The notes under the pieces were generated by a model, which saw only the letters and a list, made by a program, of their open reading frames with translations, made no database searches and was not told the DNA's origin. DNA of 64,000 bases, from positions 291,012-355,011 of the forward strand of contig JANQQL010000005.1 in the NCBI GenBank assembly GCA_028289345.1. Direction: 5' to 3'. Positions 21,278-45,005 of the stretch are shown here, in pieces; within the stretch, counting starts at the first letter, position 1; each line of letters opens with the position of its first letter. This DNA is from Planctomycetota bacterium (GTDB lineage Bacteria > Planctomycetota > B15-G4 > SIAN01). A program made the translations under genes and the position numbers.

Positions 21278-21978
21278 ACACCCACTTGGAACGGGACTCT
21301 CTATCGCGCCTCGCCGCGGGGGAACTCGATGCCGAAGAGTCGATGATCGCTCTGAAGCACGTGGAAACGTGCTCCGAGTGTGCCCGAGAACTCGACTTCT
21401 TGGCAGACCTGGTGGCAGCAGTCGATGACCAGTCTCAGTCCGGGACCTCGGCCATCGAGGCCAGGGAACCGACGACACACTCCCGAATGCTGGTCCCGGC
21501 GTTGGCGCTGTTCGTGGTGGTCATCGCGGCTCGGCTGGTCTTGAGAATTCCCGAACCCGTGCTGCCCTCGGTGCACCCCGAGGCGCCGGCCTACTACAGA
21601 GTCGCCCTCCTGGCCGACGACGATTCGCCGAAGGCTCGACTCGATCGAGCCATGACGCCGTATCGAGAAGCAGATTTTGTGACCGCCGTGAAGACATTGA
21701 CGGAATTCTTGGTCCAAGAGCCAGGACACGCACTGGCGCGTTTCTACCGCGGCGTTTGTCACCAGCAATTGCACGACTACAGCTCAGCCCGACGGGATTT
21801 CTTGGCAGCTCAGGAAACCAGCGAGGGATTTCTCCAACGCCACGCCCGATGGCGTCTCGCCCAGGTGGCGATTCAACAAGACGATCCCGATCGGGCTCGA
21901 GAATTGTTGGGGCAACTCGTTCAAGAAGGTCGAGAATTCTCTCTGAATGCGGAGCAGCTTCTTCAAGACCTCCCGTGA
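21274..21978 (+). CDS. anti-sigma factor, ZAS-type (HxxxCxxC) with one TM helix and an extracytoplasmic TPR-like domain
   Basis: GTG 21274 overlaps the sigma stop (GTGA). Motif KHVETCSECAREL; TM MLVPALALFVVVIAARLVL; C-terminal helical repeat region. An alternative start at the internal ATG (MIALKH...) is possible. Confidence 0.65.
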   Translation: MNTHLERDSLSRLAAGELDAEESMIALKHVETCSECARELDFLADLVAAVDDQSQSGTSAIEAREPTTHSRMLVPALALFVVVIAARLVLRIPEPVLPSVHPEAPAYYRVALLADDDSPKARLDRAMTPYREADFVTAVKTLTEFLVQEPGHALARFYRGVCHQQLHDYSSARRDFLAAQETSEGFLQRHARWRLAQVAIQQDDPDRARELLGQLVQEGREFSLNAEQLLQDLP

Positions 21979-24965
21979 TGGACCCAATCGGCCTCGGCTC
22001 CTTCCTTGTCATTGCGCTGCAGACTCCCGCGGACGCTCTCGCGGCGGTCTCCGTCGAGGAGATGATCCGACAGCGCTCTTGCGACTCTTTGCAACGTTGG
22101 GCCGAGAATCGCCCTTGGGATGTGGCGGATCTGTGCGCCAGCCGGGTACGCGGAATTCTCCAAGCGGCCGCTGACCGAGACTCCTTCGTCGAAGATGCAT
22201 TTCGCGAGCAGGCCTGGTTCCTGATCGACTGCTTGACCGAAGCCCCGGCCCCCGAATGGCTGGCTCTGACCCTGGAATGGGACGACGATCAGCTCCGCGA
22301 GGTGCATGAACTTGGTCGCCAACTTCCCGGCTTGGACCACCAGACACTCGCCGGGTGGCAGGAACGGGCGGAGTCCTTGAACGCACTGCCGCTATTCGAG
22401 TACCGACTGAGTCGGTTGGCCAACCGACTGTTCCAAGAAGGACACCGGTCTCTCGCTGACGAACTGGCCGAACAACTGCTGTTCGTCGCGGAAGACGTCG
22501 AAAGCGGATTGACCCTCGCGTGGAGTTTGCATTGGCTGGCCCGGGTCTCCTGGCGACGCGGTGATTTCGAGGAGTCCCAAGAACGATTTCAACGCTCGCG
22601 CTCGCTGTGGCAGGCTCTCGACGACGACCGGGAGGCCTGCTTGGTGTTGCAAGAGCTGTCGTCACTGCAGTTGGTCACCGGGGACCTGACAGGAGCGCTG
22701 CAGTCGTCCCAGGATGCGCTGCAGGAGGCCCATCGCTTGACCGATTGGGACACCCTTCAGCGAGCGGTGGAGATTCAAGCCTCCATCCTGCAGGAGCTGG
22801 GGGAACCCGCTGCGGCTTATCGAGCGCTGCTGTCTCTCGACGAGGTGGGCCAAGGTCGGGAGTCCGAGCCAGAAACACGAGCGCGCCGAGAGCTGATGCG
22901 CGGCACGATTCTCTCCGACCTGGGTCAAGAGACCTTGGCGGAACAAGCGCTGCAACGGGCGGCCGCGGCCGCGGCTCATCCCTCCGCGGTGAACGCCGCT
23001 CCCGAACTCGCCTGGGAAGTTCAGCTTTCGCTCGGCCTCCTCCTCGGAGATCTGGGACACACCGAGGCGGCTCTCTCTACCCTGCAAACCGCCGAGAAAG
23101 GGTTCCTGGCCGGAGAAGACCCCCGGGGCGCCGCATGGGCCTGGAAGAACCGCGGCTGGGTCCTGCAGCGAGCGGGGCGATTCGAGGAAGCCATGGAGTG
23201 GTTCGCCCGAGCCACGGATTACGGCAAAGAGCACTCGCTGCCCTTCCTGGAAGGCTGGTGTGCCTTGGGCCAGGCCGAATGCGCCGTGGATCTTGGCGAG
23301 CTTCCAGAGTCCTTTGGCCCGTGGCTGCAAGTCGCGCAGGAACGCGGCCGGCAACTCGATGACAATCATTTGCGATGGCGCACGTCGGCGGCATTCGCCG
23401 AAGGCTGCCTTCTCCGAGGGGATCTCGAGGAAGCTCTGATCCATCTCCGCTTGGCGGTGAAGCGTCTCGAATCGCTGCGACAGAACCTCGAAGTTCCGAC
23501 CCTCATGACCCACTTTTTGCGACATCGCGCCGATCCCTACCGACGGGCCGCGTCGGTGGCCGCAAGACTCGGCTCCCACCAGGAGTCGTTTCGCTACGCG
23601 GACTTGCTGTGCGGAAGAATCCTCGCGGAAAGCCGGTCCCGGCAGGAATCTCCGGTCTCATTCTCGAAAGCTGTCTCCCAACTGAGACGCCAAGAGAAGG
23701 AGCTCGTGGCCAAGCGCCGCGACCCGGCGACGGACCAAGGGGCGCTCGACTCCGAACTGGTCACGATCCGACATGCTCTCCGAGAAGCTCTGGTCCGCGA
23801 CGAACTCCAAGCCCCTCGCCAATTCGCGCTCCGAGGACTCTCGGTCCATTCGGTGGACTGCTCCCGACTCCAAGAACGGATTGGTGAACTCCCTTTCGAA
23901 ACACTCATCGAATACTTGGTTCTTGATGACAAGACTCTGGTCTACGAAGTCCGCGAGGACGACTTTCGCGTCCACACCTTGGACATTGGTCGAACCGAGC
24001 TGAAACGGCTGGTGGCGCGCTTGCGAGAACCGATCGAGAAATTGCGTGCCGGACAGATTGACCTGGCCCACTTGGGTTTCGATGGGCAGGCTGCTCGCGA
24101 ACTCTACGAACGCCTGGTCGGTCCCTTGCGCGAACGATGGGGCTCTCGCGTGGCCATCGTTCCTGACGGTCCCCTATGGTCCGTTCCCTTCGATGCACTC
24201 GTCACAGCGGGAAAGCCAGGCCCCCTCGAAATCCGTCGACCATTCTCCCATTTGCAGCCCCTGCAGTTCCTGGCCGAAGAACTCGTGATCTCCATCGTTC
24301 CTGCGGCCGCCGTGCTGGCTTGGCCACCGTCAACCCCGCCTGTTCCGCCACAGACGGTGCCCCCTTCCACGGCGAGACGAAACACGATCGGGTATTCGTC
24401 CAGCCACCGGCAGCCGACACTGCCGCCCCTTGTCCCATCGACGGAGGCTTCTTTCTCGCCACCAGTCCTTCACTTCGCACCGGCGACGAGGCAGGACATT
24501 CTTGGCACCGCCGGTCAGGCTCGTGTCCTGCACTTCTTCGCTCACGGTTTCATCGATCGAGACGTGCCACAGAACTCTCACCTCCTGTTTAGGGATGAAC
24601 AAGGTCGACCGGACCCACTTCGGTCCTGGGAGATCGAGCGACTGCCACTGACGGCGGACTTGACGATCCTGTCCGCTTGTCACAGCGGCGAAGGGGCTTA
24701 TCTGCCGGGAGAAGGCCTCTTGGGATTGACTCGAAGTTTTCTCCTGGCGGGATCTCGGAGAGTGGTTGCAAGCCTGTGGGCCGTGGAAGAAGAGTCGACG
24801 CTGCGTCTCCTGGAACTCTTCCAAGAGGCCCTCGCCAGGGGCATGGAACCTGGGCAAGCACTTCAGCGCGCCAAGCTCGAGCTGCGTCGAACCATGGATC
24901 CGCGGGGCTTCTCTCTGGCTCACCCCTATTTCTGGGCGGGCTGGGTGCTGCACACCGCCGGTTGA
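21978..24965 (+). CDS. TPR-repeat / CHAT-domain (caspase-like protease) protein
   Basis: ATG 21978 overlaps the anti-sigma stop (TGATG). Long N-terminal TPR-like helical array; C-terminal CHAT signature with His (ARVLHFFAHGFID, about 24521-24550) and Cys (LTILSACHSGEGAY, about 24671-24696). The 5' part of the 1069-aa track ORF is out of context, since it overlaps the anti-sigma gene. Confidence 0.85.
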   Translation: MDPIGLGSFLVIALQTPADALAAVSVEEMIRQRSCDSLQRWAENRPWDVADLCASRVRGILQAAADRDSFVEDAFREQAWFLIDCLTEAPAPEWLALTLEWDDDQLREVHELGRQLPGLDHQTLAGWQERAESLNALPLFEYRLSRLANRLFQEGHRSLADELAEQLLFVAEDVESGLTLAWSLHWLARVSWRRGDFEESQERFQRSRSLWQALDDDREACLVLQELSSLQLVTGDLTGALQSSQDALQEAHRLTDWDTLQRAVEIQASILQELGEPAAAYRALLSLDEVGQGRESEPETRARRELMRGTILSDLGQETLAEQALQRAAAAAAHPSAVNAAPELAWEVQLSLGLLLGDLGHTEAALSTLQTAEKGFLAGEDPRGAAWAWKNRGWVLQRAGRFEEAMEWFARATDYGKEHSLPFLEGWCALGQAECAVDLGELPESFGPWLQVAQERGRQLDDNHLRWRTSAAFAEGCLLRGDLEEALIHLRLAVKRLESLRQNLEVPTLMTHFLRHRADPYRRAASVAARLGSHQESFRYADLLCGRILAESRSRQESPVSFSKAVSQLRRQEKELVAKRRDPATDQGALDSELVTIRHALREALVRDELQAPRQFALRGLSVHSVDCSRLQERIGELPFETLIEYLVLDDKTLVYEVREDDFRVHTLDIGRTELKRLVARLREPIEKLRAGQIDLAHLGFDGQAARELYERLVGPLRERWGSRVAIVPDGPLWSVPFDALVTAGKPGPLEIRRPFSHLQPLQFLAEELVISIVPAAAVLAWPPSTPPVPPQTVPPSTARRNTIGYSSSHRQPTLPPLVPSTEASFSPPVLHFAPATRQDILGTAGQARVLHFFAHGFIDRDVPQNSHLLFRDEQGRPDPLRSWEIERLPLTADLTILSACHSGEGAYLPGEGLLGLTRSFLLAGSRRVVASLWAVEEESTLRLLELFQEALARGMEPGQALQRAKLELRRTMDPRGFSLAHPYFWAGWVLHTAG

Positions 24966-30524: not shown

Positions 30525-32531
30525 ATGAAAGACGTCTTCGCGCGATTTGCCACCGCGGTCACCGCCGCAGGACTTCAACTCGGAATCGGACTTCTCCTCC
30601 TCTTCCCGATCCTGCATGAGTCAGCCACGACGAGCTTTGACGTGCTCCTCACCGGAGCCGCTCTCCTGGTCACTGGGATTGGCTCACGCTGGAATCCGAG
30701 CCGTCGAACCGCCATTCGTGTTTTGGCGGGAACCCTGCTTGCCTTCGTGTCGGTCCAGCTCTTGGTGGTGACCAACCACACCTGCGAAATGGCCAACGAC
30801 TTCAGCATCCAGTGGCGGACGGCGGTGACCTTCGCCACCAAGGGGGCGAGTCTTCCCAACCTTCTCCAGGAACAACGCGCCCTGCCCTTCTACTACCCCC
30901 TCGCTTCCATTTTCGGAGGCAGCGACGCGGTCTTCCAGACAGCCAACGTCGTCATGACCACTCTGACCTGGCTGATGACCGTCTGGATTGCCCGGCGCCT
31001 GTTTGGTTGGAGCGGCGCGGCAAAGACGGGGATCCTTCTGACTTTCGCTTTCGAGCCCTACGTGGCCAACAACATTGCCACTCACGATCTTCTGGGCGCT
31101 TGGGGAATCCTCCTGTTCCTTCTCCTACTCACTGAGTTCGATCATGCGAAGAGCAAAGGAACAATCTCTCTTGCGAAGACCCTCGTTCTGGCCATCTCCG
31201 CCGCGCTTGTGGTGTCTTGGACCCATTGGCAACGAGGAACAGGCCTCTACGGAATCGGTATCTTGGCCCTGTACGGCCTCGGGGGAGTCATTCCCGTCTC
31301 GCCCCACCGCCGCTCGCGAATCGTGTTCGCCAGCCTTTCACTCTTTTTCGTTTTCGTCACTCTGGGAGCCATCGATCGGGCCGGATGGAACGCACCCAGA
31401 ACCAACACGAAGACTCTGTTGTCGTTCAGCGGCTACGACGGAGGAGGACGCTTCCGCGACAAGATCCTCGCGTCGCGGGCGATCAACGCGCTGAGACCAG
31501 AGGATGCCGAACGGCTCAGCAAGGTCCTTTTTCTCGAGACGCTCCGCACGGGACCGGTCGACAAGTACGAGAACTACCTGGGCGCCGCCACCCATTTGCT
31601 TCGTTTCGGCAAAGAAAGCAACTGGTACCTGACCACCGAGGACTCAGGGCGACACCTTTCGGTCCGTTCGCTTCGTACTGTTTATGACGGTGTCCGATCG
31701 GTGATGACACCGACTCTTTGGGCACTGCTGATCCTTGCCTCTGTCCTCGTGCTGAAGAATCCGAGGAATGCTCTCGAGGGTCGATGGATGCCCTACTGGG
31801 TGGTGGCACTCCACTTGTTTCTTCTGGGCGCTTTGGCAGAGAACCAACCTCGGTACTCCTACTTCGTGGTCTTCCTCGCCGCGATCTATGTTGGTTGTCC
31901 CTGGATGGCAGAACTGTTCTCGAAAAAGGCGGACATTCCGGACTCGCCACGAAGCGACCTGCGAATCGCCACGCCTCGCTGGCTCCTCGCCTCCCTCACC
32001 GTGGTCCTGCTCGTTTTCGTCGGCCATCGGACCGCGAGCGCCCTCCACGACGTGTCCCTGGTGAACTTTCACCGGCTGACCATCTCCACGGATCCTTCGA
32101 TGCCACGGGATCTGGACGCCGTCGAACGTTTCGGAGTGGTGGTTCGTCAGAACTCCTTGAGAGTTCGACACCCGTCGGACACGAGCCCAGAGCAGCCCCT
32201 CGTCTTCTCCGGAGAGGTGCTCGCGAAATCGGACCACCACTCCCAACTGCGATTCCTTGTCGAAACCGGGCCGAGACGAAATCGTTTTGGCAAGCGGATG
32301 GATTTGAAGGGAGAACCGTTTCAGAACTCACCCGGCCGATCGATGCAGCTAGTTCTCGATGGTCAGGTGCGCAAGACCATCGATCTCTCCGGCGAGTTTT
32401 CCAACGACCGGATCGTCGTGAACGACGTCACCCCCGGCAGCCACGAGTTCGAACTCCGTTTCCAGTTTGGAACGATGACCAGCGATCCGGACAGCGTGGA
32501 AACCGTGATTTCCTTCCTGGGGATCTACTGA
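30525..32531 (+). CDS. large polytopic membrane protein (at least 10 predicted TM helices) with C-terminal soluble domain; possible GT-C-type glycosyltransferase
   Basis: Successive hydrophobic segments across the first about 450 aa; no confident family call. Confidence 0.55.
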   Translation: MKDVFARFATAVTAAGLQLGIGLLLLFPILHESATTSFDVLLTGAALLVTGIGSRWNPSRRTAIRVLAGTLLAFVSVQLLVVTNHTCEMANDFSIQWRTAVTFATKGASLPNLLQEQRALPFYYPLASIFGGSDAVFQTANVVMTTLTWLMTVWIARRLFGWSGAAKTGILLTFAFEPYVANNIATHDLLGAWGILLFLLLLTEFDHAKSKGTISLAKTLVLAISAALVVSWTHWQRGTGLYGIGILALYGLGGVIPVSPHRRSRIVFASLSLFFVFVTLGAIDRAGWNAPRTNTKTLLSFSGYDGGGRFRDKILASRAINALRPEDAERLSKVLFLETLRTGPVDKYENYLGAATHLLRFGKESNWYLTTEDSGRHLSVRSLRTVYDGVRSVMTPTLWALLILASVLVLKNPRNALEGRWMPYWVVALHLFLLGALAENQPRYSYFVVFLAAIYVGCPWMAELFSKKADIPDSPRSDLRIATPRWLLASLTVVLLVFVGHRTASALHDVSLVNFHRLTISTDPSMPRDLDAVERFGVVVRQNSLRVRHPSDTSPEQPLVFSGEVLAKSDHHSQLRFLVETGPRRNRFGKRMDLKGEPFQNSPGRSMQLVLDGQVRKTIDLSGEFSNDRIVVNDVTPGSHEFELRFQFGTMTSDPDSVETVISFLGIY

Positions 32532-34267: not shown

Positions 34268-34813
34268 ATGCGGAAACGACCAATTGTGGGAGTGATGGGA
34301 TCTGGCTCTCTCAGTCACGATGCCGCTGCTTCGGAGTTGGGGAGCTTCCTGGCCACCCGCGCAGTCCACTTGCTGACGGGAGGAGGGGGTGGGGTCATGA
34401 CCAGCGTGAGCAAGGCGTTCTCCCTTTGCAAACCGCGCCTCGGCTGCGTGATCGGCGTGCTGCCATGCGCCAGTCAAGAACAACCGACCATGCCGAAACC
34501 GGGATACCCCAATGACTGGATCGAAATCCCCATCCACACCCACCTGCCTCTGAGCGGCCTTCAGGGAAGAGACTTGGCGTCTCGAAATCACATCAACGTC
34601 TTGTCCTCAGACGTCGTCATCTCGCTTCCCGGCAGTGAAGGCACGCGAAGCGAGATTGATCTTGCGTTGGACTACGGACGGCCAGTCATTGCCTATCTGC
34701 CCCACGACCTGGAGTTTCCCAAGCTTCCCTCCAAGGTGTCCGTGGCCACCGATCTCCCCTCGCTCGAGCGATTCCTCGATGAGCACTTGCCACAGCCTCA
34801 GGATGGGCAGTGA
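34268..34813 (+). CDS. SLOG/LOG-like Rossmann-fold protein (TIGR00725-type, lysine-decarboxylase-like family)
   Basis: PIVGVMGSGS...HLLTGGGGGVMTSVSKAF...ISLPGSEGTRSEIDLAL matches the GGGxGxM and PGGxGTxxE signatures of LOG/TIGR00725. ATG 34268 after aggagg; divergent from the sulfatase. Confidence 0.65.
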   Translation: MRKRPIVGVMGSGSLSHDAAASELGSFLATRAVHLLTGGGGGVMTSVSKAFSLCKPRLGCVIGVLPCASQEQPTMPKPGYPNDWIEIPIHTHLPLSGLQGRDLASRNHINVLSSDVVISLPGSEGTRSEIDLALDYGRPVIAYLPHDLEFPKLPSKVSVATDLPSLERFLDEHLPQPQDGQ

Positions 34814-34921: not shown

Positions 34922-37900
34922 ATGGATTGGATAGCCAAGCAGATTCAATCAGTCCGAGACGGGGCGAGTACCAGACTCGATCTATGGGACGAAGAGCTGA
35001 CAGAGCTGCCGAATGAAGTACTGTCTCTCCACAAGCTCGAATATCTCAGGGTAAGGTCGGGCAAGCTTCGCACGATTCCCTCTGAGCTAGCAAAGCTCCC
35101 CAATCTCAAGAGTGTCGACCTATTCGGCAACCCCATCGAGTCTCTGGTCGATCTCCCGGGGTTACACCTGGATGTCGAGCCCTATCTCTCCTGCGTTTCG
35201 AGCATCTCTCCAGAAAATGTGCACGGGCTGTGGCTCGGCCCGTCTCCTTTCATTAGTTACAGTCTTCTCGAGAAGCTTGCCAACCTCCGACGACTCGACC
35301 TAAGCCGGCGGGATCGGTTCGCGTACAAGACCGGCCTCAACAAACCCGGCCCTTTGCGAAAGTTGTTCGCTTGGCTGAAATCCGCGAACGAGATCCTCAG
35401 CCGCCTCGAAACTTTGGAGATCGCGTACGCGAAACTCGATCGTCTTCCCCTAGTCATCCGGCAATTAAGCCAACTAAAGAAGCTCAACTTAGACGGCAAT
35501 CCTCTTCACCGGTTTCCAAACATCTCGAGGCTTCGAGAACTGTTCGCCTTGCGTCTCTCCGACACCGGGATCAGAGAGGTGCCGGACAAGCTGTGCCGTC
35601 TCACGGAACTTCGAAATCTTGACCTCTCCTTCAACGACCTAGTCAAACTTCCAAACGACATCGGTCGGCTAACCAAACTCTCGAGTCTGGTCCTCGAATC
35701 CAACAACCTCGAGAGAATCCCCAGCTCAGTTCGGAAGCTCAAGAAACTCACATTCCTGGATCTTTCCGACAACCCACTAGCGGAATTTCCGCGGGAGATA
35801 TTTTCTCTCAGTAACCTTCGCGCCTTGAACATGACATGCGGTCTTGACGACTCGACCTGCCAACGTGGCACTTATCCCTTCGTGCGGACCCGACCGTCTC
35901 AAGCGTCGTTTCAGGAGATCCCACCCCGCATTCTCGAGCTCAAGCAACTCGAAGAGCTGCGTGTTTCCGGACAGCCGATTGAGACGCCACCCCCAGAGGT
36001 CGTCGACCGAGGCCTTGAGGCGATCAAGGACTATTGGAGGCAGCGGGGGGACTCGGGGACCGACTATCTTTGCGAGGCCAAACTGCTGGTCGTCGGCGAA
36101 GGGGGGGCTGGCAAGACCTCCCTCGCCAAGAAAGTCAAAGCTCCGGAAACCAACCTCGACGCAGAAGAGGAGTCGACGGAAGGAATTGAAGTTCTCGAGT
36201 GGACATTCCCCACGGCGCTAAGGGTCACAGAGAACGGCCAACTCAAAACCGTGGAGCGCGACTTCCGGGTCCACATCTGGGATTTCGGGGGTCAGGAGAT
36301 CTACCACGCGACCCATCAGTTTTTCCTGACCCGTCGATCTCTCTACGCCCTTGTCGCCGACAACCGCAAGGAAGACACCGACTTCAACTACTGGCTCAAC
36401 ATTGTCGAGCTATTGAGTGACGGAAGCCCGTTGGTCATCGTCAAGAACGAACGCCAAGACCGACAAAGAGACATTGATGAGGGATCTCTTCATGGCCGGT
36501 TCCGCAATCTCACCCAAGTCGTGGCGACGAACCTGAAAACCAACCGGGGGCTCGACGGCGTCCTCCAACGGTTCCGCGAAGAACTCGAGAAGCTGTCCCA
36601 CGTCGGCACTCCCCTTCCGGCAACGTGGAAGCGGGTGCGAGACGCTCTCGAGAAAGACCCCCGCAACTACATCGAACTCGACGAGTATCTCAGGATCTGC
36701 GAGGTTCATGGGTTCACCCGTCTGGACGACAAGCTTCAGTTGAGTGGATACCTCCACGACCTAGGCATCTTCCTCCACTTCCAAGACGATCCCCTGCTGA
36801 AACGAATCGTCATTCTTCAGCCAAAATGGGGAACGGATGCCGTCTATCGCGTCCTTGACAACGACACGGTCCTTCGAAGACACGGCAGGGTGAGCCGCAA
36901 CGACCTAGAGAACATCTGGGACGAAGAAGCTTACGCATCCATGCGCGACGAGCTGCTGCAACTCATGATGCGATTTCAGCTCCTTTACCCACTTCCCTCG
37001 AAGAACGAGTTCATCGCCCCTCAACTGTTAGGATCCGCACAGCCTGAGTACCCATGGCCGGGGACGGGCAACCTCGTCATTCGCTACCGCTACGAGTTCA
37101 TGCCGAAAGGACTCCTGACGCGGCTCATCGTGGCCGTCCACGACATGATTCAAAGCGAAGGTTTCGTCTGGAAGACGGGAGTCCTCGTCGAGCGAGATGG
37201 GACACGCGCGGAGATCGTCGAGCACTACTCCCAGCGATGCATCGTGGTTCGAATTCACGGGGCTTTTCAACAAGAGCTCGCTGCGGTGATTGACCGAGAG
37301 CTCGAACAGATCCACCGTTCCTTTCCTCCACTCAAGTACGACACTCTCGTCCCCTGCGGATGCACCTTGTGCTCTTCGAGCCCAGACCCCCACCCACACT
37401 CCTACAAGACGCTACGAAAGTTTGCTTGGGATGGACAACCGATCCAGTGCCCCATTAGCTACGAGATGATTGAACCGCGGTCGATCCTCGACCACAAATT
37501 CGTGCGCAACCGCAAGCTGGACATAATCCTCGACACGATCGAAGGCACACTCCGACCGCAACAAGCAGAGCCGGCCGCGGCTGAGTCCCGCGAGGTGCTC
37601 CTGTCCTATGCCTGGAACGGAGGATGTGACACCTTGATCGAAAAACTCGAAAAGTCGTTCCGAGAGCGCGGAATCGAGCTGATCCGCGACCGAAGCGAGA
37701 TGACCTACAAGGACTCGATCCGAGGTTTCATGAAGCGCATCGGCACAGGAAAATGTGTTGTCATCGTCATCAGCAAAGAGTACCTGGAGTCCCCCAACTG
37801 CATGTTCGAACTTACCGAGATCGCCAAACACGGCGAGTTTCGTGATCGAGTGTTTCCCATCGTCCTCTCGGACGCGAAGCTGTTCCATCCGGTCAGTCGG

Positions 37901-38140
37901 TTGAAGTACATCAAGCATTGGGAGTTGCAGATCGCGGACCTTGACGAGGCAATGAAGGAAGTCGAGCAGACAAACTTGGACTCCATTCAGGAAGAGATCA
38001 ATCATTATCGGGAAATCCGGACGACCATTGCCGACCTCACAAATGTGCTTCGCGACATGAATAGCCTCACGACAGAGGATCACATCGACACCGAGTTCGA
38101 AGCACTTCTCAATGCGGTCGACTCGCGGTTACGAACCTGA
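34922..38140 (+). CDS. ROCO-type protein with C-terminal TIR domain: LRR - Roc (Ras-like GTPase) - COR - TIR
   Basis: At least 12 LRRs (LxxLxxLxLxxNxL, e.g. LTELRNLDLSFNDLVKLPNDIGRLTKLSSLVLESNNLERIPSSV). Roc G1 LLVVGEGGAGKTSLAKKV (about 36091-36123) and G3 WDFGGQEIY. COR (LSGYLHDLGIFLHFQDDPLLKRIVILQPKWGTDAVYRVLD). C-terminal TIR (VLLSYAWNGG...KCVVIVISKEYLESPNCMFELTEIAK; Glu codons at 37808-37810 and 37817-37819). GC about 43-55% versus about 65% in flanking regions. Confidence 0.85.
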   Translation: MDWIAKQIQSVRDGASTRLDLWDEELTELPNEVLSLHKLEYLRVRSGKLRTIPSELAKLPNLKSVDLFGNPIESLVDLPGLHLDVEPYLSCVSSISPENVHGLWLGPSPFISYSLLEKLANLRRLDLSRRDRFAYKTGLNKPGPLRKLFAWLKSANEILSRLETLEIAYAKLDRLPLVIRQLSQLKKLNLDGNPLHRFPNISRLRELFALRLSDTGIREVPDKLCRLTELRNLDLSFNDLVKLPNDIGRLTKLSSLVLESNNLERIPSSVRKLKKLTFLDLSDNPLAEFPREIFSLSNLRALNMTCGLDDSTCQRGTYPFVRTRPSQASFQEIPPRILELKQLEELRVSGQPIETPPPEVVDRGLEAIKDYWRQRGDSGTDYLCEAKLLVVGEGGAGKTSLAKKVKAPETNLDAEEESTEGIEVLEWTFPTALRVTENGQLKTVERDFRVHIWDFGGQEIYHATHQFFLTRRSLYALVADNRKEDTDFNYWLNIVELLSDGSPLVIVKNERQDRQRDIDEGSLHGRFRNLTQVVATNLKTNRGLDGVLQRFREELEKLSHVGTPLPATWKRVRDALEKDPRNYIELDEYLRICEVHGFTRLDDKLQLSGYLHDLGIFLHFQDDPLLKRIVILQPKWGTDAVYRVLDNDTVLRRHGRVSRNDLENIWDEEAYASMRDELLQLMMRFQLLYPLPSKNEFIAPQLLGSAQPEYPWPGTGNLVIRYRYEFMPKGLLTRLIVAVHDMIQSEGFVWKTGVLVERDGTRAEIVEHYSQRCIVVRIHGAFQQELAAVIDRELEQIHRSFPPLKYDTLVPCGCTLCSSSPDPHPHSYKTLRKFAWDGQPIQCPISYEMIEPRSILDHKFVRNRKLDIILDTIEGTLRPQQAEPAAAESREVLLSYAWNGGCDTLIEKLEKSFRERGIELIRDRSEMTYKDSIRGFMKRIGTGKCVVIVISKEYLESPNCMFELTEIAKHGEFRDRVFPIVLSDAKLFHPVSRLKYIKHWELQIADLDEAMKEVEQTNLDSIQEEINHYREIRTTIADLTNVLRDMNSLTTEDHIDTEFEALLNAVDSRLRT

Positions 38141-38147
38141 CATTCCT

Positions 38148-39452
38148 TTAGTTGTTCTGATTGTCGAACAAGAAGGCCGTCCCTTCTGCAACGCGCCGAA
38201 GCTGAGCATTCGACCAACTCACGTAGTCCACCAGACCACCACGCTTGTCCAGAAGTGACAGGTTGCCGCCGGAGTTGGGTAAGCGCAGCTTGCCGAGAGT
38301 GGAGCCCTTGAGCCGCAGAGCCCCCCCCGACTCGATCGATCCTTCAACCGTGACTTCCCGACCTTGGCCATCGATGAGCCGCCAGCCGGTGACCGACGTC
38401 TTGCGGTCTCCCCGGTTGTGCAGTGACACCCATTCCCCCGAGGCCTCGGTTCCCTTCGGGTTGATCATGGCGGAAATGATCACAATGCGCCGGGACGCAA
38501 GACCCTCCACTTCGGGTCGATCCTCCGCACTTTCGGTGATCACCGAGTTGCTGGGAACCACCGGAATTCGCTCTGGCAGCGAATGGGCGGTTCGTCGGTT
38601 CGCGGGTACGTTTCGATACAGCAGCGGATTCGCATCGTACAGGGCTTTGCCGAAGTGGATGCCCGTCAGATCCTGCAACTCGCTGATGGTCACCTGGTAG
38701 TTTTGATTGGTCTTGACCTGTTTTCCACCTTTCTTGTCCCGCAACACCTCCGCATCTTGAAAGATCGCAAAGGCCATGACCCCCAACGGCTCTCCCGCGG
38801 GCGCCTCTTTCCGAGCGTAGCAGATCACTTTGAAGAACCCCGACGGCACCCGCGCGGAGTCACTGTCCGAAAGGTTGATGTGTCGGTCCAAGTCTCCATA
38901 GATCGGCCCCGTGAACACCGACAGGCGGTCGTTTGCGTCATCCTTGAACTCCCGCACGATGTCCAGCTCCAATGCTTTCCACTCATCGCGGTTCAGGTTC
39001 TCGTGCTGAAGTGACGAGTTCGTATAGATGAATGTCGCCTTCCCCGCTTTGTCGGACTCGGTGTTGTCCACCCCCCACATGTTGTTGAAACGCATGACCA
39101 TGTGCCCACGGTCGTAGGGATTGGGAATCTTTGCTCCCGATGGGGTCTTTCGGTCCTTGTAGTAGTCATTGTCCAGCTGATGATGACGACCAACATTGGG
39201 ATCATTGCGCCAGCCTCGTTCCCCGTTGCCGGGTGGCTTGGGTTTGAAACGGGACTGATCGATGTTGTAAGCGGAATAGATCAGCTGCCGAGTGTGCTCA
39301 TTCATCAGCACGCTGAAATGCACGTGGTCGGAGTACCGCTCGTCTCTCAAGGAAGCGCTTTTCAGCACGGAGCGTCCGAGCGTGGCATTGACTGTTGGCA
39401 AAGGAACGCGCAGCCCTCCACCAATGAACTCCGGGTCATATCCAATTTGCAT
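38148..39452 (-). CDS. DNA/RNA non-specific endonuclease (Endonuclease_NS, DRGH motif) fused to a C-terminal lamin-tail domain (LTD)
   Basis: HFSVLMNEHTRQLIYSAYNID...; catalytic NPYDRGHMVMRFNN. C-terminus EWVSLHNRGDRKTSVTGWRLIDGQGREVTV...GGNLSLLDKRGGLVDYVSW has the LTD pattern. No signal peptide seen. Convergent with the ROCO-TIR gene, stop-to-stop gap of 7 nt. Confidence 0.8.
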   Translation of the reverse strand: MQIGYDPEFIGGGLRVPLPTVNATLGRSVLKSASLRDERYSDHVHFSVLMNEHTRQLIYSAYNIDQSRFKPKPPGNGERGWRNDPNVGRHHQLDNDYYKDRKTPSGAKIPNPYDRGHMVMRFNNMWGVDNTESDKAGKATFIYTNSSLQHENLNRDEWKALELDIVREFKDDANDRLSVFTGPIYGDLDRHINLSDSDSARVPSGFFKVICYARKEAPAGEPLGVMAFAIFQDAEVLRDKKGGKQVKTNQNYQVTISELQDLTGIHFGKALYDANPLLYRNVPANRRTAHSLPERIPVVPSNSVITESAEDRPEVEGLASRRIVIISAMINPKGTEASGEWVSLHNRGDRKTSVTGWRLIDGQGREVTVEGSIESGGALRLKGSTLGKLRLPNSGGNLSLLDKRGGLVDYVSWSNAQLRRVAEGTAFLFDNQNN

Positions 39453-41084: not shown

Positions 41085-44000
41085 CTACGGTTGAACCACG
41101 GTGAGCGTCAAAGACGATGCTCCAAAACTGGCCTGCAGCTCTAACCCGCCACCCAAGACCAATCCGTTGTAGGTCGAGAAGTCTCCTGAGCGCGACCCGT
41201 AAGTCATGATTTCGAAACTGTCACCGAGCTGGGGCGAGAAACCGTTGATAAGCGTCACATTCAGCGTCCCGTCCAGGGTGACCGTACCGCCGACGACCAG
41301 AACATCGAAGTCTGTCCCGGCGGTCAATCCTCCAATCTCGACCTCCATCTGGGCGCTGGAGGATTGGCTGTAATCACCCGTGAACTCAAGCGTTCCCGGG
41401 GAAAGACCAATGTCCGTGGTCCCCTCGACGTCGCCGCTTCCGGTCACTACGCCAGCCCCCCGAAGGGTCCCGGATTGGATGTCGAGGACGAAACTCCCCA
41501 CATCAAAGTTGCCCCCGTTCAGGAACGTCGTGCCCGCGGTTTGGGTGTAGCCGCCCTGAAGCACCAGGGTGCCAGTTTGGACCTCGACGTCGCCGTCGTT
41601 GCGAAACACGACATTGCTCGGAAACACGGTGTCGCCACTGTCAACGGAACGAAGGAAAGTGCCCGAGTTGTTGAAGGTCGAGCTGCTCCCGGACGCGAAT
41701 CCGAAGTCCGCATCACTCTGCACGTCGAAGGTGGCCCCGGCCAGATTGTTGAACACGGAGCCGTTATTGAGGAACAGATCTCCCGAGCCGGTCATGGTGC
41801 TCGCTCCGGAGTTGTTGAGTGTGCGACCGGTCATGACCTTGTTTTGGCTTCCACCGATGGACAGGTTGCCCGAGGAGGGAATGGTCGTGGTCCCGACCTC
41901 GAGCATGAATCCCCCGTTCCAAATGACCGAGTTTTGGGCACTGATCTCTCCGGTTCCTAGGATGGATCCACCGCTTTGGGTGAGGGTGTTGGTGATGACG
42001 ATGCCATCGATGTCCGTCTCGCCCCCGACCACCTGGAATCCCTCCACGGTGAGATTCACTCCGGCTTCGATCTCGAAGGTCCCCCCAATGGTCCGCCAGT
42101 CACCCAAACCGGAAGCCGAGGTCCCCGGCTGCAAAGTTGCCACAGGATTGACCGAGTTGAACTCAATCGCTGCTCCGGAAGACACGTCGACCCCCCCGGT
42201 GTTGATCCCACCTCCGCGGAGACGGAAAGTGCCAGACTGGATCTCCAAGTTTCCATCGCTGTTGAAAACCAGACTCGCGTCCACTTCGGTCACGTCGGTC
42301 CCCCCGGACTTCCGCACTGTGCCGTCATTGTTGAACGTGGAGGGGGTGCCGGTGAAGAACTCCAGGTCAGCATCGGTCTGAACGTCGAAGGTGGCTCCCG
42401 CGAGATTGTTGAAGACCGCCCCATTGTCGATGAACAGAGAACCGTCTCCAGGAACAGCGACGGTCGCCGAGTTGTTGAACGTCCGTCCACCCCGCAGGAT
42501 CTTCGATCCGGACCCGCCCAAAGTCGCCGCAGACCCTGCGGGCACCGTGGTCGTGCCGGGACCACTCTGAGTTCCGCCGGTCCAGTTCATCGACGACGTC
42601 ACCCGCAGCTCGCCAGCTCCCGAAAGAGTGCCCAAGCTCTGTTCGAAGTTTTCTACATCGACCGGTGTCCCTGTCACGTCCAGGGTTCCGCCGATCAGTC
42701 GACCGTTGCCGTCCCCGCTGATGCTGCTCCCATTGGTCAGTGTGGACGTCCCCGCGGCAAACTCCATTGCGGTCCCGGAGTCGAGGGCGAACGACCCCGA
42801 GTTGCTGCCGCCACCTCGAATCTGAAGGCTCCCGGTTTGCACCTGCACCGTTCCGTCATTGTTAAAGGTGAGATTCACGTCGAAGGAATTGGTTCCCGCA
42901 CCTGCGGACTTGACGAAAGTCCCCGCGTTGTTGAAAGCTCCCGGGGCCCCGGTGAAATGCTCGAACGAGGCGTCGCTTTGGACGTCGAAGGAGGCTCCAG
43001 CCAAGTTGTTGAAGACCGCACCCGAAGAGATGAACAAGTCGCCGCTATCAGTCAGTGTCGCCGAGCCTCCGTGATTGATGGTTCGGCCGGAAGTCAAGTT
43101 CTTGGCTCCGGTGCCGCGGATGGTCAACGTGGCCCCCCCCGAAATGGAGGTCGTCCCGGGACCCGCTTGCTCGCCCCCGGTCCATTCCATGGAATCGTTG
43201 ACGATGAGATTGCCATCGCCCTGGAGTTTCCCTGAAGACTGACGGAACGTATCAACGACCGTACTGCCGTCGTCCGCAAGATTCCCGGCCTCGAGGATCA
43301 ACTGCGTGATCAACAAATCGACGCCACTCGAGACTTCCAAGGTCCCGGAATTCACCCGATACTCCCCGTCTCCGTTGCAGGTCGTGGAGGGGTTGAAGAC
43401 GTACGTCGGGTTCGCAGAAGCAAATTCAATCGCCGTCCCCGTGTCGGAAGTGAAGGACCCCGTGCTGGCCCCTCCTCCGGTGAAACGAAACGAGCCGGAC
43501 TGGACCTGCACCGTCCCATCGTTGTTGAACCTCAGGCCGGCGTCCACATTGGTCGTGTCCGCGCCCGCGGATTTCACCAAGGATCCGCGGTTGTCGAAGG
43601 TCGAGGGCGCCCCGGTGAAGAACTCGAGATCCGCATCGCCCTGAATGTCAAAGGTTGCCCCGGCCAGGTTGTTGAACACCGCTCCGTCGTCGATGAACAA
43701 GCTCCCGGAATCGCTCAGCGTCGTCGTTCCCGAGTTGTCCATGGTCCGCCCGCCTCGAAGAACCTTGGGGGAAGATCCGGAAACGAACAGGTCCGCATCA
43801 CTGCCGATCGTCGTCTTCCCGGACCCGTTTTGCATTCCTCCCGTCCAATTCATGCGATTGCTGATGAGCAGCTCGCCGTTGCCGGTTACGGTTCCCGTGG
43901 ACTGCGAGAAGCTCTCGAACGTGACCGGGTTCCCGGCCACATCCAAGGTGCCTCCGCTGAGCAGAGCCTCGCCGTCACCACTGACGCTTGCTCCGGTGTC

Positions 44001-45005
44001 GAGAATGGAAGTGCCCGAGGCGAAGTCCACCGACGATGAGGAGGAAATCGAAAACATCCCAGAAGAGGTTCCCCCTCCGATCAACTGCAGCGTTCCGCTC
44101 TGGACTTGGACGGTTCCGTCATTGTTGAACGCCAGGTTGACGTCGAACGAGGTATTCGTCCCGCTGGACTTGACGAAGTTCCCCTCGTTGTTGAACTCCC
44201 CAGGAACTCCCGTGAAGTGTTCAAATGCCGCGTCGGATTGCACGTCGAAGCTGGCTCCGGCGAGGTTGTTGAACGTGGCGCCCTCCGAGATGAAGAGAGA
44301 CCCGGTGTCCGTGAGGGTGGTCGAACCCCGGTTGTTCATGGTTCGGCCTCCGGTCAGGTTCTTCGCGGACGAGCTACTCATCTGAAGCGTGGCGGACTCC
44401 CCGATGTTGGTCCGTCCGTTTCCGGTTTGCTCTCCCCCGGTCCAGTTCGCTTGCACGGTGACCAACAAACGATTGCCGCCGGTCACGACCCCTCCGGATT
44501 GGGTGAAGTATTCGACATCGAGTTTCTTGTCAACCAGCAGAGTCCCTTGGGACACACACAGATTGCGGATGGTGGAGACACTCTTCTTGACTTCCAGCTC
44601 CCCCCCGGCGAGTTCGATCGTCTCCGTGCATAGGATCTTGCCCGGTTCCGCCGTGCCCGAAGAGAGAGTGACCGTGACGTCCGCACTGGAACGGTCAATG
44701 ATGACGGTTTGCCCCGGCAGCGGCGGCCCTCCCGTACTCCAATTGCTGCCGTCTTCCCAGATGCCGCTGGAGTTGCTGATCCAAATCGCATCGCCCGAAG
44801 GATCTGGCTCGATCCCGATTCGCGGTTTCTCGATCTGAGATCGGGCCGTGGAACTCCAAGCCAACACGAGAGCGAGCCCCAAGAACCGGGAAGCTCCCTC
44901 GGAGAGAAAACGCTTCAAGCCTCGACGCAACGCGATTGCCACTCTGACCATTTCGAAACCCTCATCCCTTTGCCCTCCGGTCCAGAGCCGTCCCGATGCC
45001 TTCAT
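41085..45005 (-). CDS. giant secreted beta-strand-repeat protein (autotransporter-associated / PATR-type repeats), 1306 aa
   Basis: Signal peptide; about 5 tandem units of about 210 aa, each containing NWTGG...GRT(M/I)N(N/H)xGxxTLTDSGxLFIxxGAVFNNLAGA(S/T)FDVQSDA...FNNDGTVQVQ(S/T)GxL. Confidence 0.8.
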   Translation of the reverse strand: MKASGRLWTGGQRDEGFEMVRVAIALRRGLKRFLSEGASRFLGLALVLAWSSTARSQIEKPRIGIEPDPSGDAIWISNSSGIWEDGSNWSTGGPPLPGQTVIIDRSSADVTVTLSSGTAEPGKILCTETIELAGGELEVKKSVSTIRNLCVSQGTLLVDKKLDVEYFTQSGGVVTGGNRLLVTVQANWTGGEQTGNGRTNIGESATLQMSSSSAKNLTGGRTMNNRGSTTLTDTGSLFISEGATFNNLAGASFDVQSDAAFEHFTGVPGEFNNEGNFVKSSGTNTSFDVNLAFNNDGTVQVQSGTLQLIGGGTSSGMFSISSSSSVDFASGTSILDTGASVSGDGEALLSGGTLDVAGNPVTFESFSQSTGTVTGNGELLISNRMNWTGGMQNGSGKTTIGSDADLFVSGSSPKVLRGGRTMDNSGTTTLSDSGSLFIDDGAVFNNLAGATFDIQGDADLEFFTGAPSTFDNRGSLVKSAGADTTNVDAGLRFNNDGTVQVQSGSFRFTGGGASTGSFTSDTGTAIEFASANPTYVFNPSTTCNGDGEYRVNSGTLEVSSGVDLLITQLILEAGNLADDGSTVVDTFRQSSGKLQGDGNLIVNDSMEWTGGEQAGPGTTSISGGATLTIRGTGAKNLTSGRTINHGGSATLTDSGDLFISSGAVFNNLAGASFDVQSDASFEHFTGAPGAFNNAGTFVKSAGAGTNSFDVNLTFNNDGTVQVQTGSLQIRGGGSNSGSFALDSGTAMEFAAGTSTLTNGSSISGDGNGRLIGGTLDVTGTPVDVENFEQSLGTLSGAGELRVTSSMNWTGGTQSGPGTTTVPAGSAATLGGSGSKILRGGRTFNNSATVAVPGDGSLFIDNGAVFNNLAGATFDVQTDADLEFFTGTPSTFNNDGTVRKSGGTDVTEVDASLVFNSDGNLEIQSGTFRLRGGGINTGGVDVSSGAAIEFNSVNPVATLQPGTSASGLGDWRTIGGTFEIEAGVNLTVEGFQVVGGETDIDGIVITNTLTQSGGSILGTGEISAQNSVIWNGGFMLEVGTTTIPSSGNLSIGGSQNKVMTGRTLNNSGASTMTGSGDLFLNNGSVFNNLAGATFDVQSDADFGFASGSSSTFNNSGTFLRSVDSGDTVFPSNVVFRNDGDVEVQTGTLVLQGGYTQTAGTTFLNGGNFDVGSFVLDIQSGTLRGAGVVTGSGDVEGTTDIGLSPGTLEFTGDYSQSSSAQMEVEIGGLTAGTDFDVLVVGGTVTLDGTLNVTLINGFSPQLGDSFEIMTYGSRSGDFSTYNGLVLGGGLELQASFGASSLTLTVVQP
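41405..44555 (-). repeat. intragenic tandem repeat array (about 5 x about 630 bp) inside the giant repeat protein gene
   Basis: Periodicity seen at the protein level (NWTGG at about aa 188, 400, 615, 830, 1050). DNA-level identity not computed. Confidence 0.6.

Follow-up and report, generated by a model that had tools for sequence, protein, structure and literature searches.

What might a Roco protein do when it ends in a TIR domain? Prokaryotic Roco proteins serve as structural models for LRRK2, the Parkinson's disease kinase, and their physiological role is unknown. The question is raised by one gene within a 64-kb stretch of planctomycete DNA (the whole of which is called the window here), whose product had been read as leucine-rich repeats (LRRs), a Roc GTPase, a COR domain and a C-terminal TIR domain, and had been put forward as a plausible new immune-like sensor. 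I argue that this protein, called ROCO-TIR below, is probably a self-contained, GTP-gated cytoplasmic LRR/Roc(AP-GTPase)/COR sensor whose TIR domain, resembling those of plant TIR-NLRs (TNLs), would cleave NAD+. Whether it is a true immune receptor is a separate matter, on which I am more tentative.

Architecture of the protein

The gene is complete (Table 1). Its start codon is the first one downstream of a stop, with a Shine-Dalgarno-like GGGAG about 6 nt to its 5' side, and an identical protein comes from an independent gene call, in a second assembly that carries the same sequence (Logan contig L001). The window contains a single copy. The order of four modules set out in the original prediction holds good when examined by Pfam, AlphaFold models and fold searches, which give LRR, Roc, COR-A, COR-B, a disordered linker and TIR in that order. 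Pfam finds LRR, Roc, COR-A, COR-B and TIR_2, every match exceeding its curated cut-off, and all the strings quoted in the prediction are present in the translation (GEGGAGKTS, DFGGQ, LLSYAWNGG at residues 893-901, and VIVISKEYLESPNCMFELTEI, which includes Glu963). Two AlphaFold models support the domains (pLDDT 85; 85.4 for the full-length model). The best matches of the full-length model in the PDB are the LRR-Roc-COR structure of CtRoco (6hlu; Foldseek E 2.6e-36), LRRK1, LRRK2 and MbRoco2.

Table 1. Positions in the window of the ROCO-TIR gene, its parts and the gene upstream
Feature	Position	Strand	Basis or remark
SLOG (LDcluster4) gene, 181 aa	34268..34813	+	108 bp upstream of ROCO-TIR
Complete ROCO-TIR gene, 1072 aa plus stop	34922..38140	+	ORF list and translation, Pfam domains
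N-terminal LRR solenoid, residues ~15-350, ~14 repeats	34964..35971	+	Pfam and AlphaFold
Roc (Ras of complex) GTPase, residues 385-560	36074..36601	+	Pfam, PDB sequence matches
P-loop (G1) GEGGAGKTS, residues 392-400	36095..36121	+	
Switch I Thr419 (G2)	36176..36178	+	
Switch II DFGGQ (G3), residues 454-458	36281..36295	+	
Atypical G4 NERQD	36446..36460	+	
COR-A, residues 566-703	36617..37030	+	Pfam 3.7e-44; fold match to CtRoco and MbRoco2 RocCOR
COR-B, residues 717-857	37070..37492	+	Pfam 6.5e-29
COR-B cysteine cluster, Cys812/Cys814/Cys817/Cys843	37355..37450	+	Family-specific
Disordered linker between COR-B and TIR, residues 863-887, variable length	37508..37582	+	pLDDT below 50
TIR with long C-terminal helices, residues 889-1072	37586..38137	+	
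Candidate catalytic Glu963 in TIR	37808..37810	+	

At least 12 LRRs had been predicted, and the AlphaFold model has 14 short LRR beta-strands. Pfam LRR_14, LRR_8 and LRR_4 cover residues ~20-313 (E 2e-20 to 5e-18). The solenoid is presumably the sensor, or a regulatory domain. It is the least conserved module, with a mean identity of 33% compared with 64-66% for Roc and COR-A (111-113 homologues), a divergence that would be expected of a sensor under diversification.

The LRRs also bear sub-threshold NCBIfam matches to XopAC, XopAE, XopL and internalins, and the weaker structural matches of the TIR domain include BtpA/TcpB and PdTIR. Such resemblances would suit a secreted LRR/TIR virulence effector directed against eukaryotic TIR signalling, like TcpB/BtpA or the LRR type III effectors of Xanthomonas. 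The NCBIfam scores, however, fall far short of their curated thresholds (105 bits where 450 is required, to give one case) and are confined to the LRRs. By inspection, the N-terminus (MDWIAKQIQSVRDG...) lacks a hydrophobic segment resembling a signal peptide, and no secretion-system genes were seen near the gene in the window. The named relatives come from environmental and from free-living bacteria, lichen-associated Nostoc among them, and I know of no secreted effector with a central Roc-COR switch. The idea of a secreted effector is scarcely credible, and I reject it.

The Roc-COR switch

The switch at the center of the protein was predicted to be Roc-COR rather than NB-ARC or NACHT, and Pfam and the fold matches agree. 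Roc is matched at residues 387-510 (E 9e-23), while neither Pfam nor the fold search matches NB-ARC, NACHT or any other STAND domain in the protein. Among PDB sequences searched with phmmer, those closest to Roc are from the biochemically studied MbRoco2 (4wnr; 8e-29) and CtRoco (7e-24), the comparison on which the mechanism proposed below draws, followed by LRRK2 (1e-13). GEGGAGKT, Thr419 and DFGGQ, representing G1 to G3, are invariant among 114 homologues, and switch II with the helix after it is nearly identical to that of CtRoco and MbRoco2 (WDFGGQEI.HA.HQFF).

G4 is atypical. It reads NEKQD in 98 of the 114 homologues and NEKQ- in 105, and the NERQD of the window protein (K to R) is unique among them. 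CtRoco carries NKID at this place, and NERQD could be NKxD plus a one-residue insertion. Since it departs from NKxD, the guanine specificity of Roc is only putative.

The predicted COR domain is recognized by Pfam and Foldseek as COR-A plus COR-B, directly C-terminal to Roc. RocCOR structures are matched at TM 0.7-0.85 (0.85 for 4wnr), and the COR-B profile matches the COR of CtRoco at about 1e-11. The four-cysteine cluster in COR-B is 99% conserved among 114 homologues, invariant in another alignment of homologues, and absent from CtRoco within the aligned stretch. According to a review of the family (PMC6337361), prokaryotic Roco proteins cycle between monomer and dimer in a nucleotide-dependent manner, dimerization taking place through COR, and in CtRoco it is the C-terminal half of COR that plays this role. 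The linker that follows COR-B is essentially unalignable across homologues. A disordered tether of 25 residues ahead of TIR, as modeled, would fit activation of that domain by proximity.

The TIR domain

TIR_2 is matched by Pfam at residues 892-1000 (E 4e-11). The fold is that of a TIR domain (flavodoxin-like), and the closest solved structures are the TIRs of plant TNLs; bacterial TIR NADase defence proteins are also among the structural matches. A glutamate had been predicted at the position where TIR NAD+-hydrolases have their catalytic residue, and so it is: Cys960-Met-Phe-Glu963-Leu, in the alpha-C helix, aligns with Cys83-Leu-Glu-Glu86-Leu of Roq1, and Glu963 is invariant among 114 homologues. 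Glu86 of Roq1 is catalytic, and its mutation abolishes the hypersensitive response (Roq1 structure paper). The tryptophan of the plant TIR motif WCLxEL, four residues before the catalytic Glu, gives way here to Asn or Ser. PADLOC has no model for ROCO-TIR. At the level of the TIR domain its matches are weak (SAVED_TIR, PDC-S66 and bSEFIR; E 5e-5 to 2e-3), and none of its ThsB models match.

A family already catalogued

How new is such a protein? Full-text literature searches found no experimentally characterized bacterial ROCO-TIR, just as the original prediction had supposed. The claim that the sensor is new does not survive. Kaur, Iyer, Burroughs and Aravind (2021, eLife 10:e70394, PMC8195603, Fig. 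6D) described prokaryotic proteins of the LRR/AP-GTPase/COR type, for which TIR is one of at least 24 possible C-terminal effectors, and predicted that the class acts against invaders, a prediction made by comparative genomics without experiment. The architecture is moreover widespread. TIR_2 is present in all but one of the best 120 protein clusters, most of them full length and 42-54% identical, and COR-B and TIR are encoded at all of the best 80 genome loci, thus at no fewer than 80, spanning Cyanobacteria, Acidobacteriota, Planctomycetota, Myxococcota and Actinomycetota. The closest other sequence among the matches listed is at most 54% identical to the window protein, which is a divergent member of a class already catalogued computationally. 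Its uncultured source can be placed only in a deep PVC-type lineage, since FtsH shows no more than 63% identity to its nearest relatives and the few matches with names are from Gemmataceae, Planctomycetota and Verrucomicrobiota.

The best clusters and loci come mainly from filamentous cyanobacteria, myxobacteria, Actinoplanes, Planctomycetota and Acidobacteriota, and five assemblies have two loci apiece among the best 80. The modules also occur in other combinations. A Roc-COR chassis 56% identical to this one but with a non-TIR C-terminus is found on a mobilizable Nostoc plasmid, beside genes for ParA, PIN and integrase, and Chondrinema plasmids encode the same TIR subtype (42-46% identical) within TIR-TIR and TIR-FGE-sulfatase proteins. 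Multiple copies, shuffled modules with swapped effectors, and plasmid-borne relatives are typical hallmarks of conflict systems.

The GC content of the gene is 0.557, compared with 0.612 for the window, and its GC3 is 0.69, compared with 0.67-0.75 in its neighbors. Since GC3 matches that of the neighbors, the low overall GC most likely comes from amino-acid composition, and recent horizontal acquisition is not evident. An origin from phage or prophage is rejected: tblastn over 50,697 phage records gave no match to ROCO-TIR, and a search of IMG/VR gave one weak match, to COR-B only.

Does the protein act alone?

In the window, ROCO-TIR is accompanied by genes for a histidine kinase, a sulfatase, a SLOG protein, a nuclease and a PQQ propeller, in a chromosomal context where genes for two-component signalling and metabolism predominate. 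PADLOC gave one weak partial match among nine neighbors, to the histidine kinase, and none to the other eight. A survey of 150 representatives of neighbor families from 80 homologue loci found a heterogeneous collection, with no recurrent partner gene. The most frequent family is Response_reg, and no family occurs at more than 19 of 81 loci, those 19 appearing to be syntenic loci of the Nostoc group. Neighbors this heterogeneous indicate a single-gene system. The original prediction had looked to the surroundings of homologues for defence islands. No consistent island is found there, which tells in part against an immune role, and defence genes do occur sporadically, at some loci. By both PADLOC and the survey, a defence-island context is rejected.

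One neighbor invites a closer look. The SLOG gene is adjacent and co-directional, and there is no + strand terminator in the gap between it and ROCO-TIR. SLOG is the signal-binding domain of ThsA in Thoeris, and at five cyanobacterial loci ROCO-TIR is followed downstream by a DUF6174 gene and then, 1-2 kb from ROCO-TIR, by an LDcluster4 gene. Could the two genes form a Thoeris-like system, with ROCO-TIR producing an ADPR-derived signal for the SLOG protein to sense or process? I consider this quite improbable. The pairing is unconserved from both sides. LDcluster4 genes are found at 6 of 81 ROCO-TIR loci (flanks up to 10 kb), and the five from cyanobacteria look like one syntenic lineage, because they have a gene order in common. 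Starting from SLOG, neither a ROCO protein nor a TIR of this type was found at any of 83 loci with close relatives of the window SLOG (0.5 Mb in all, 40 loci of at least 5 kb). The SLOGs of the cyanobacteria fall into another subclade: they share 37-38% identity with that of the window and lack two insertions. The window SLOG is a single-domain, stand-alone protein of the TIGR00725 or 'molybdenum cofactor carrier' type, carries no effector domain, and fails to match the ThsA model of PADLOC. Its nearest relatives (55-60% identity) adjoin GGACT, carA or hydrogenase genes. On these grounds, and with the TIR of ROCO-TIR matching no ThsB model, the Thoeris-like pairing is rejected; the SLOG gene is an incidental neighbor of housekeeping type, outside the ROCO-TIR system.

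A proposed mechanism

I propose that ROCO-TIR works as follows. The rapidly evolving LRR solenoid would bind a trigger or lift autoinhibition, and this event would alter the nucleotide state of Roc. That state would be coupled through COR-B, as in CtRoco, to a transition between monomer and dimer (or a higher-order form). TIR domains on their flexible tethers would thereby be brought together, and a composite active site around Glu963 would cleave NAD+. As there is no conserved partner gene, the simplest output would be depletion of NAD+, or an ADPR-derived product, made by the protein itself and acting without help. The outcome would be growth arrest or death of the infected or stressed cell. 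The trigger, the dependence on GTP, the oligomeric switch, the NADase activity and the immune (anti-phage or anti-invader) role are all predicted parts of this scheme.

One step does not follow easily. The GTP form of CtRoco is a monomer, and TIR domains as a rule require two or more head-to-tail pairs. By analogy, a dimer-to-monomer switch like that of CtRoco would count against a simple assembly of TIR domains upon GTP loading.

Is the protein, then, a true immune receptor, one whose plant-like TIR NADase is gated by a Ras-like Roc-COR module instead of a STAND ATPase, by way of an oligomeric state that changes with the bound nucleotide? I regard it as a serious possibility, short of probable. 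Counted against the proposed scheme as a whole are the lack of a recognizable defence island at the window locus, the sporadic occurrence of defence genes at homologue loci, the lack of a PADLOC model for the protein, the native-like GC3, the atypical G4 and the replacement of the plant tryptophan ahead of the catalytic Glu.

Another role may be imagined, that of a switch governing stress responses, differentiation, kin discrimination or programmed cell death in bacteria with complex lifestyles, where TIR would be the synthase of an NAD-derived messenger or a scaffold. The surrounding genes for two-component signalling and metabolism, the prominence of Response_reg at homologue loci, the groups of bacteria in which the family is concentrated, the native-like GC3 and the lack of a recognizable defence island in the window or at most homologue loci are all in keeping with it. 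An invariant glutamate at the catalytic position, however, argues against TIR as a pure scaffold, no conserved downstream receptor gene is found at homologue loci, and hypervariable LRRs, multiple copies in some assemblies, swapped effectors and relatives on plasmids are what conflict systems typically show. I judge a non-immune switch unlikely, though deserving of attention. The preferred reading remains the self-contained sensor with a TIR that would cleave NAD+.

Comparison with known systems

The AP-GTPase (Roc)-COR class of Kaur et al. (2021; PMC8195603) has the same layout: a rapidly evolving N-terminal LRR, then AP-GTPase/Roc and COR, and at the C-terminus an effector that varies. The window protein fits all the features stated for the class and shows no architectural difference from it, being distinguished by its divergent sequence (at most 54% identity) and its NERQD G4. 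The order LRR-Roc-COR and the fold are common also to CtRoco of Chlorobium tepidum and Roco2 of Methanosarcina barkeri (MbRoco2), the models for LRRK2. Their solved structures have no TIR, whereas the family considered here adds a linker and TIR, the COR-B cysteines and a non-canonical G4. The prokaryotic Roco proteins known in 2019 were all of the simple LRR-Roc-COR type, according to a review of that year that never mentions TIR and considers control of an output domain by the Roc-COR nucleotide cycle to be still debated (PMC6337361).

Likeness to Thoeris (ThsB, a TIR protein, plus ThsA, either SIR2-SLOG or TM-Macro) consists of a TIR gene beside a SLOG gene in the window; there is no ThsB-type TIR and no ThsA effector in a conserved operon. 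In SPARTA (TIR-APAZ/Ago), TIR-SAVED, TIR-STING and Cat1, a sensor triggers oligomerization of a TIR NADase, which by analogy would be the output expected here too. The bacterial TIR defences and the STAND sensors Avs and bNACHT rely on Argonaute, SAVED, STING, CARF or a STAND ATPase, where ROCO-TIR has Roc-COR, and the sequence likeness of ROCO-TIR to the bacterial TIR NADase defences is confined to the TIR core. To my knowledge, none of these defences or sensors uses a Roc-COR GTPase.

The original prediction likened the protein to plant TNLs, Avs and bNACHT. Their logic of sensor, switch and effector is indeed shared, but ROCO-TIR has no STAND NTPase, and the likeness stops at that logic. 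In the plant TIR-NLRs (Roq1, RPP1, RPS4, L6 and RUN1), TIR is N-terminal rather than C-terminal and only about 20% identical to that of ROCO-TIR, and the switch is the STAND ATPase NB-ARC in place of a Ras-like GTPase with COR as dimerizer. Plant TIR-NLRs form a tetrameric resistosome, and the products of their TIRs signal to EDS1 heterodimers; no equivalent of this partner was seen for ROCO-TIR.

If ROCO-TIR is an immune receptor, it would be the first TIR receptor switched by a GTPase, joining those gated by STAND, Argonaute, SAVED and CARF, and a bacterial model for reading the output of an LRRK2-type Roc-COR module directly, as cleavage of NAD+. A family with a predicted TIR NADase output offers a simple enzymatic read-out of the Roc-COR switch, and its value lies in experiments on the ROCO-TIR family, of which the window gene is one divergent example. 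Such a receptor would also tie bacterial conflict systems more firmly, in evolutionary terms, to the TIRs of plant TNLs, the closest solved structures to its own.

Architecture of the protein

The reading frame opens with the first ATG that follows a stop codon and has a GGGAG motif in front. In an independent assembly of this organism (Logan SRR20820731, locus L001) a gene caller predicts an identical protein. All peptide strings quoted in the original prediction occur in the translation, and the P-loop and DFGGQ motifs were recovered on re-translation. The order of modules, leucine-rich repeats (LRR) followed by Roc, COR and TIR, was called correctly: a search with Pfam profiles gives every one of these families above its curated threshold (Table). 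AlphaFold, supplied with 73 homologues, models the full-length protein with a mean pLDDT of 85.4 and 14 LRR strands. Here the sole long disordered stretch, residues 863-887, lies between COR-B and TIR. The model's top PDB matches are the LRR-Roc-COR crystal structure of Chlorobium tepidum Roco, CtRoco (6hlu, E 2.6e-36), LRRK1, and LRRK2, with the RocCOR of Methanosarcina barkeri Roco2, MbRoco2, also among them (TM 0.85). Some close relatives (P0011 and P0082, 1275 and 1345 aa) carry two tandem Roc-COR modules per polypeptide.

Table. Coordinates of the ROCO-TIR gene, its domains and motifs, its neighbours, and related plasmid genes
Feature	Position (nt)	Strand	Size or residues	Remarks
FtsH gene	14519..16408	+		
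TPR-CHAT (caspase-like protease) protein	21756..24965	+	1069 aa	
TPR hybrid histidine kinase				neighbour
668-aa protein	30525..32531	+	668 aa	no significant Pfam or PADLOC family
Sulfatase		opposite to ROCO-TIR		neighbour
SLOG/LDcluster4 gene	34268..34813	+	181 aa	AGGAGG ribosome-binding site
ROCO-TIR gene	34922..38140	+	1072 aa	
LRR families			~20-313	Pfam
Roc			387-510	Pfam 9e-23
Roc G4 motif NERQD	36446..36460	+	509-513	alignment with CtRoco NKID
COR-A			566-703	Pfam 3.7e-44
COR-B			717-857	Pfam 6.5e-29
COR-B cysteines (CxCxxC...C)	37355..37450	+	812, 814, 817, 843	alignments
TIR_2			892-1000	Pfam 4e-11
Endonuclease_NS and lamin-tail-domain (LTD) protein	38148..39452	-	434 aa	convergent with ROCO-TIR
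PQQ beta-propeller				neighbour
Orphan	41085..45005	-	1306 aa	no significant Pfam or PADLOC family
TIR-TIR or TIR-FGE-sulfatase protein	L165 5998..7716			Chondrinema litorale plasmid
TIR-FGE-sulfatase protein	L166 5974..7788			Chondrinema litorale plasmid
LRR-Roc-COR protein	L167 5257..7902			Nostoc sp. ATCC 53789 plasmid pNsp_i, mobilizable, 40-kb

A widespread class

There is no shortage of similar proteins. The protein database holds 4985 relatives at E <= 1e-10, named only "COR domain-containing protein" and the like, from Corallococcus, Nostoc, Aliinostoc, Adonisia, Thermoanaerobaculia, Bryobacteraceae, Pyrinomonadaceae, Longimicrobium, and Planctomycetes, among other sources. Of the best 120 clusters only one lacks TIR_2; identities are 42-60%, mostly over the full length. 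A COR-B plus TIR profile, run against one genome for each GTDB species, confirmed at least 582 loci with relatives of COR-B and/or TIR, of which the best 80 all span both. Among the matches listed, the closest is 49% identical and the window's own genome does not appear.

The 2019 Roco review lists every prokaryotic Roco protein as plain LRR-Roc-COR and nowhere mentions TIR (PMC6337361). The decisive precedent for the class is Kaur et al. 2021 (PMC8195603), a comparative-genomic prediction that LRR/AP-GTPase/COR proteins of prokaryotes, with TIR as one possible C-terminal effector, counter invaders. The literature searched yielded no experimental study of any bacterial ROCO-TIR, in keeping with the original remark of no known characterised example. 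Because there is this precedent and no experimental work was found, the class counts as known from computation only. The protein of the window is a divergent new member of it. The sensor-switch-effector anatomy read from the sequence stands; the newness suggested for it does not, the class being widespread and previously predicted.

The GTPase and COR-B

The Roc domain is nearest to those of MbRoco2 (8e-29) and CtRoco (7e-24), the two prokaryotic Roco proteins studied biochemically, followed by LRRK2 (1e-13). ROCO-TIR homologues keep the P-loop GEGGAGKT, Thr419, and DFGGQ without exception. Where CtRoco has NKID as its G4 motif, the window protein reads NERQD. In the family NEKQD is the consensus (98 of 114 homologues, with NEKQ common to 105), and among these the change of K to R is unique to the window protein. 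The motif could be NKxD with a one-residue insertion, and the nucleotide specificity of the domain may depart from that of canonical GTPases.

COR-B contributes four cysteines that are invariant in a 73-sequence alignment and 99% conserved among the 114 homologues. CtRoco, over the stretch that aligns, lacks them. They may mark an insert that binds zinc, within the half of COR responsible for dimerisation.

The TIR domain

A profile of the C-terminal region finds the TIR domains of plant TNLs first (L6 at 4.5e-10, then RPV1, Roq1, RUN1, SNC1, and RPP1), with bacterial PdTIR, BtpA, AbTir, and Cat1 ranking only later. The original prediction placed a glutamate at the catalytic position of TIR NADases. 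A pairwise HMMER alignment bears this out, setting Cys960-Met-Phe-Glu963-Leu against Cys83-Leu-Glu-Glu86-Leu of the plant TIR-NLR Roq1, whose Glu86 is the catalytic glutamate, its mutation abolishing the hypersensitive response (Roq1 structure paper). Glu963 is invariant in the 114 homologues. In plant TIRs a Trp lies four residues ahead of the catalytic Glu, whereas ROCO-TIR proteins have Asn or Ser there.

A gene without a conserved partner

In Thoeris, ThsA senses its signal through SLOG, and so a partnership between TIR and SLOG was examined. The window does have a Thoeris-like look: a SLOG gene lies 108 bp upstream of ROCO-TIR on the same strand. Neighbours were counted in 81 loci, the window plus the best 80 of at least 582 relatives. 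With flanks of up to 10 kb, an LDcluster4 gene occurs in six, the window and five cyanobacterial loci (L003, L025, L040, L043, L046). The latter share one arrangement, ROCO-TIR followed on the same strand by DUF6174 (164 aa) and then SLOG (e.g. L040 8006..13014). Their SLOG proteins fall in another subclade, sharing 37-38% identity with that of the window and missing two insertions. The window SLOG is of the stand-alone TIGR00725 or "molybdenum cofactor carrier" family, which is very large (2442 matches), and goes unrecognized by PADLOC. Its closest relatives adjoin GGACT, carA or hydrogenase genes, and neither ROCO nor this TIR type is found in 83 loci (0.5 Mb in all) that carry close relatives. 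A Thoeris-style pairing is rejected, since it is conserved from neither the ROCO-TIR side (6/81) nor the SLOG side (0/83). Because of these counts, the separate subclade, and the lack of a PADLOC match, the adjacency in the window is judged incidental. The cyanobacterial recurrence is minor and may represent either a functional trio peculiar to one lineage or simply conserved gene order.

The stop codon of the Endonuclease_NS-LTD gene falls 7 bp past that of ROCO-TIR; none of the other 80 loci has a related gene next to ROCO-TIR. The 668-aa neighbour is the only member of its 90%-identity cluster in a collection of 15 billion proteins. About 10 kb upstream of ROCO-TIR is a TPR-CHAT protein, whose architecture is likewise characteristic of predicted conflict or cell-death systems in bacteria. 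Even the best matches to FtsH do not exceed 63% identity, and the few that are named are Gemmataceae, Planctomycetota, and Verrucomicrobiota, from which the source bacterium appears to belong to a deep-branching PVC-type lineage.

A survey of homologue neighbourhoods for defence islands had been suggested; across the 81 loci it gives no consistent island. PADLOC returns one weak partial match across nine window neighbours and just weak TIR-level matches to the ROCO-TIR protein itself. With all ORFs clustered, no neighbour family recurs in more than 19 of the 81 loci, and those 19 are apparently syntenic Nostoc-group loci. Among 150 neighbour-family representatives, defence matches are sporadic (SAVED_TIR 3, ThsB-like 2, mad2 2, and one each of DpdF, Cas12f/TnpB-like, and PsyrT), and the Pfam families seen most often are Response_reg (5), TIR_2 (3), and NUDIX (2). 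The gene's GC3 of 0.69 resembles that of its neighbours. No match was found by tblastn in 50,697 phage records, and IMG/VR gave a single weak one. With defence matches sporadic, no widely shared neighbour, native-like GC3, and no phage match, ROCO-TIR is a stand-alone cellular gene without a consistent defence-island signature.

Hallmarks of a conflict system are present in the family: a diverged LRR, duplicate copies, and module shuffling on plasmids. No other module has diverged nearly as far as the LRR, which is 33% identical to homologues vs 64% for Roc, 66% for COR-A, 46% for COR-B, and 53% for TIR. Five assemblies each have two copies (best 80 of at least 582 loci). The pNsp_i protein, its gene adjoined by ParA, PIN, and integrase genes, is 56% identical in Roc-COR and ends in about 160 non-TIR residues assigned to no family. 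The window's TIR subtype recurs at 42-46% identity in the Chondrinema litorale plasmid proteins.

A proposed mechanism

I propose, as the best-supported view, that ROCO-TIR is a self-contained sensor-switch-effector protein, possibly with an immune role. The LRR would sense a trigger, shifting the nucleotide state of Roc, presumably in a GTP-dependent manner. COR-B would couple this change to an altered oligomeric state, as COR does in CtRoco (PMC6337361). The flexibly tethered TIR domains would then meet, leading to Glu963-dependent cleavage of NAD+. There is no conserved partner, and so the more parsimonious output would be depletion of NAD+ by ROCO-TIR itself, rather than a diffusible signal. 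GTP-bound CtRoco is monomeric and TIR activation normally requires assembly, a difficulty for the switch as proposed. The family would render the output of a Roc-COR switch directly assayable.
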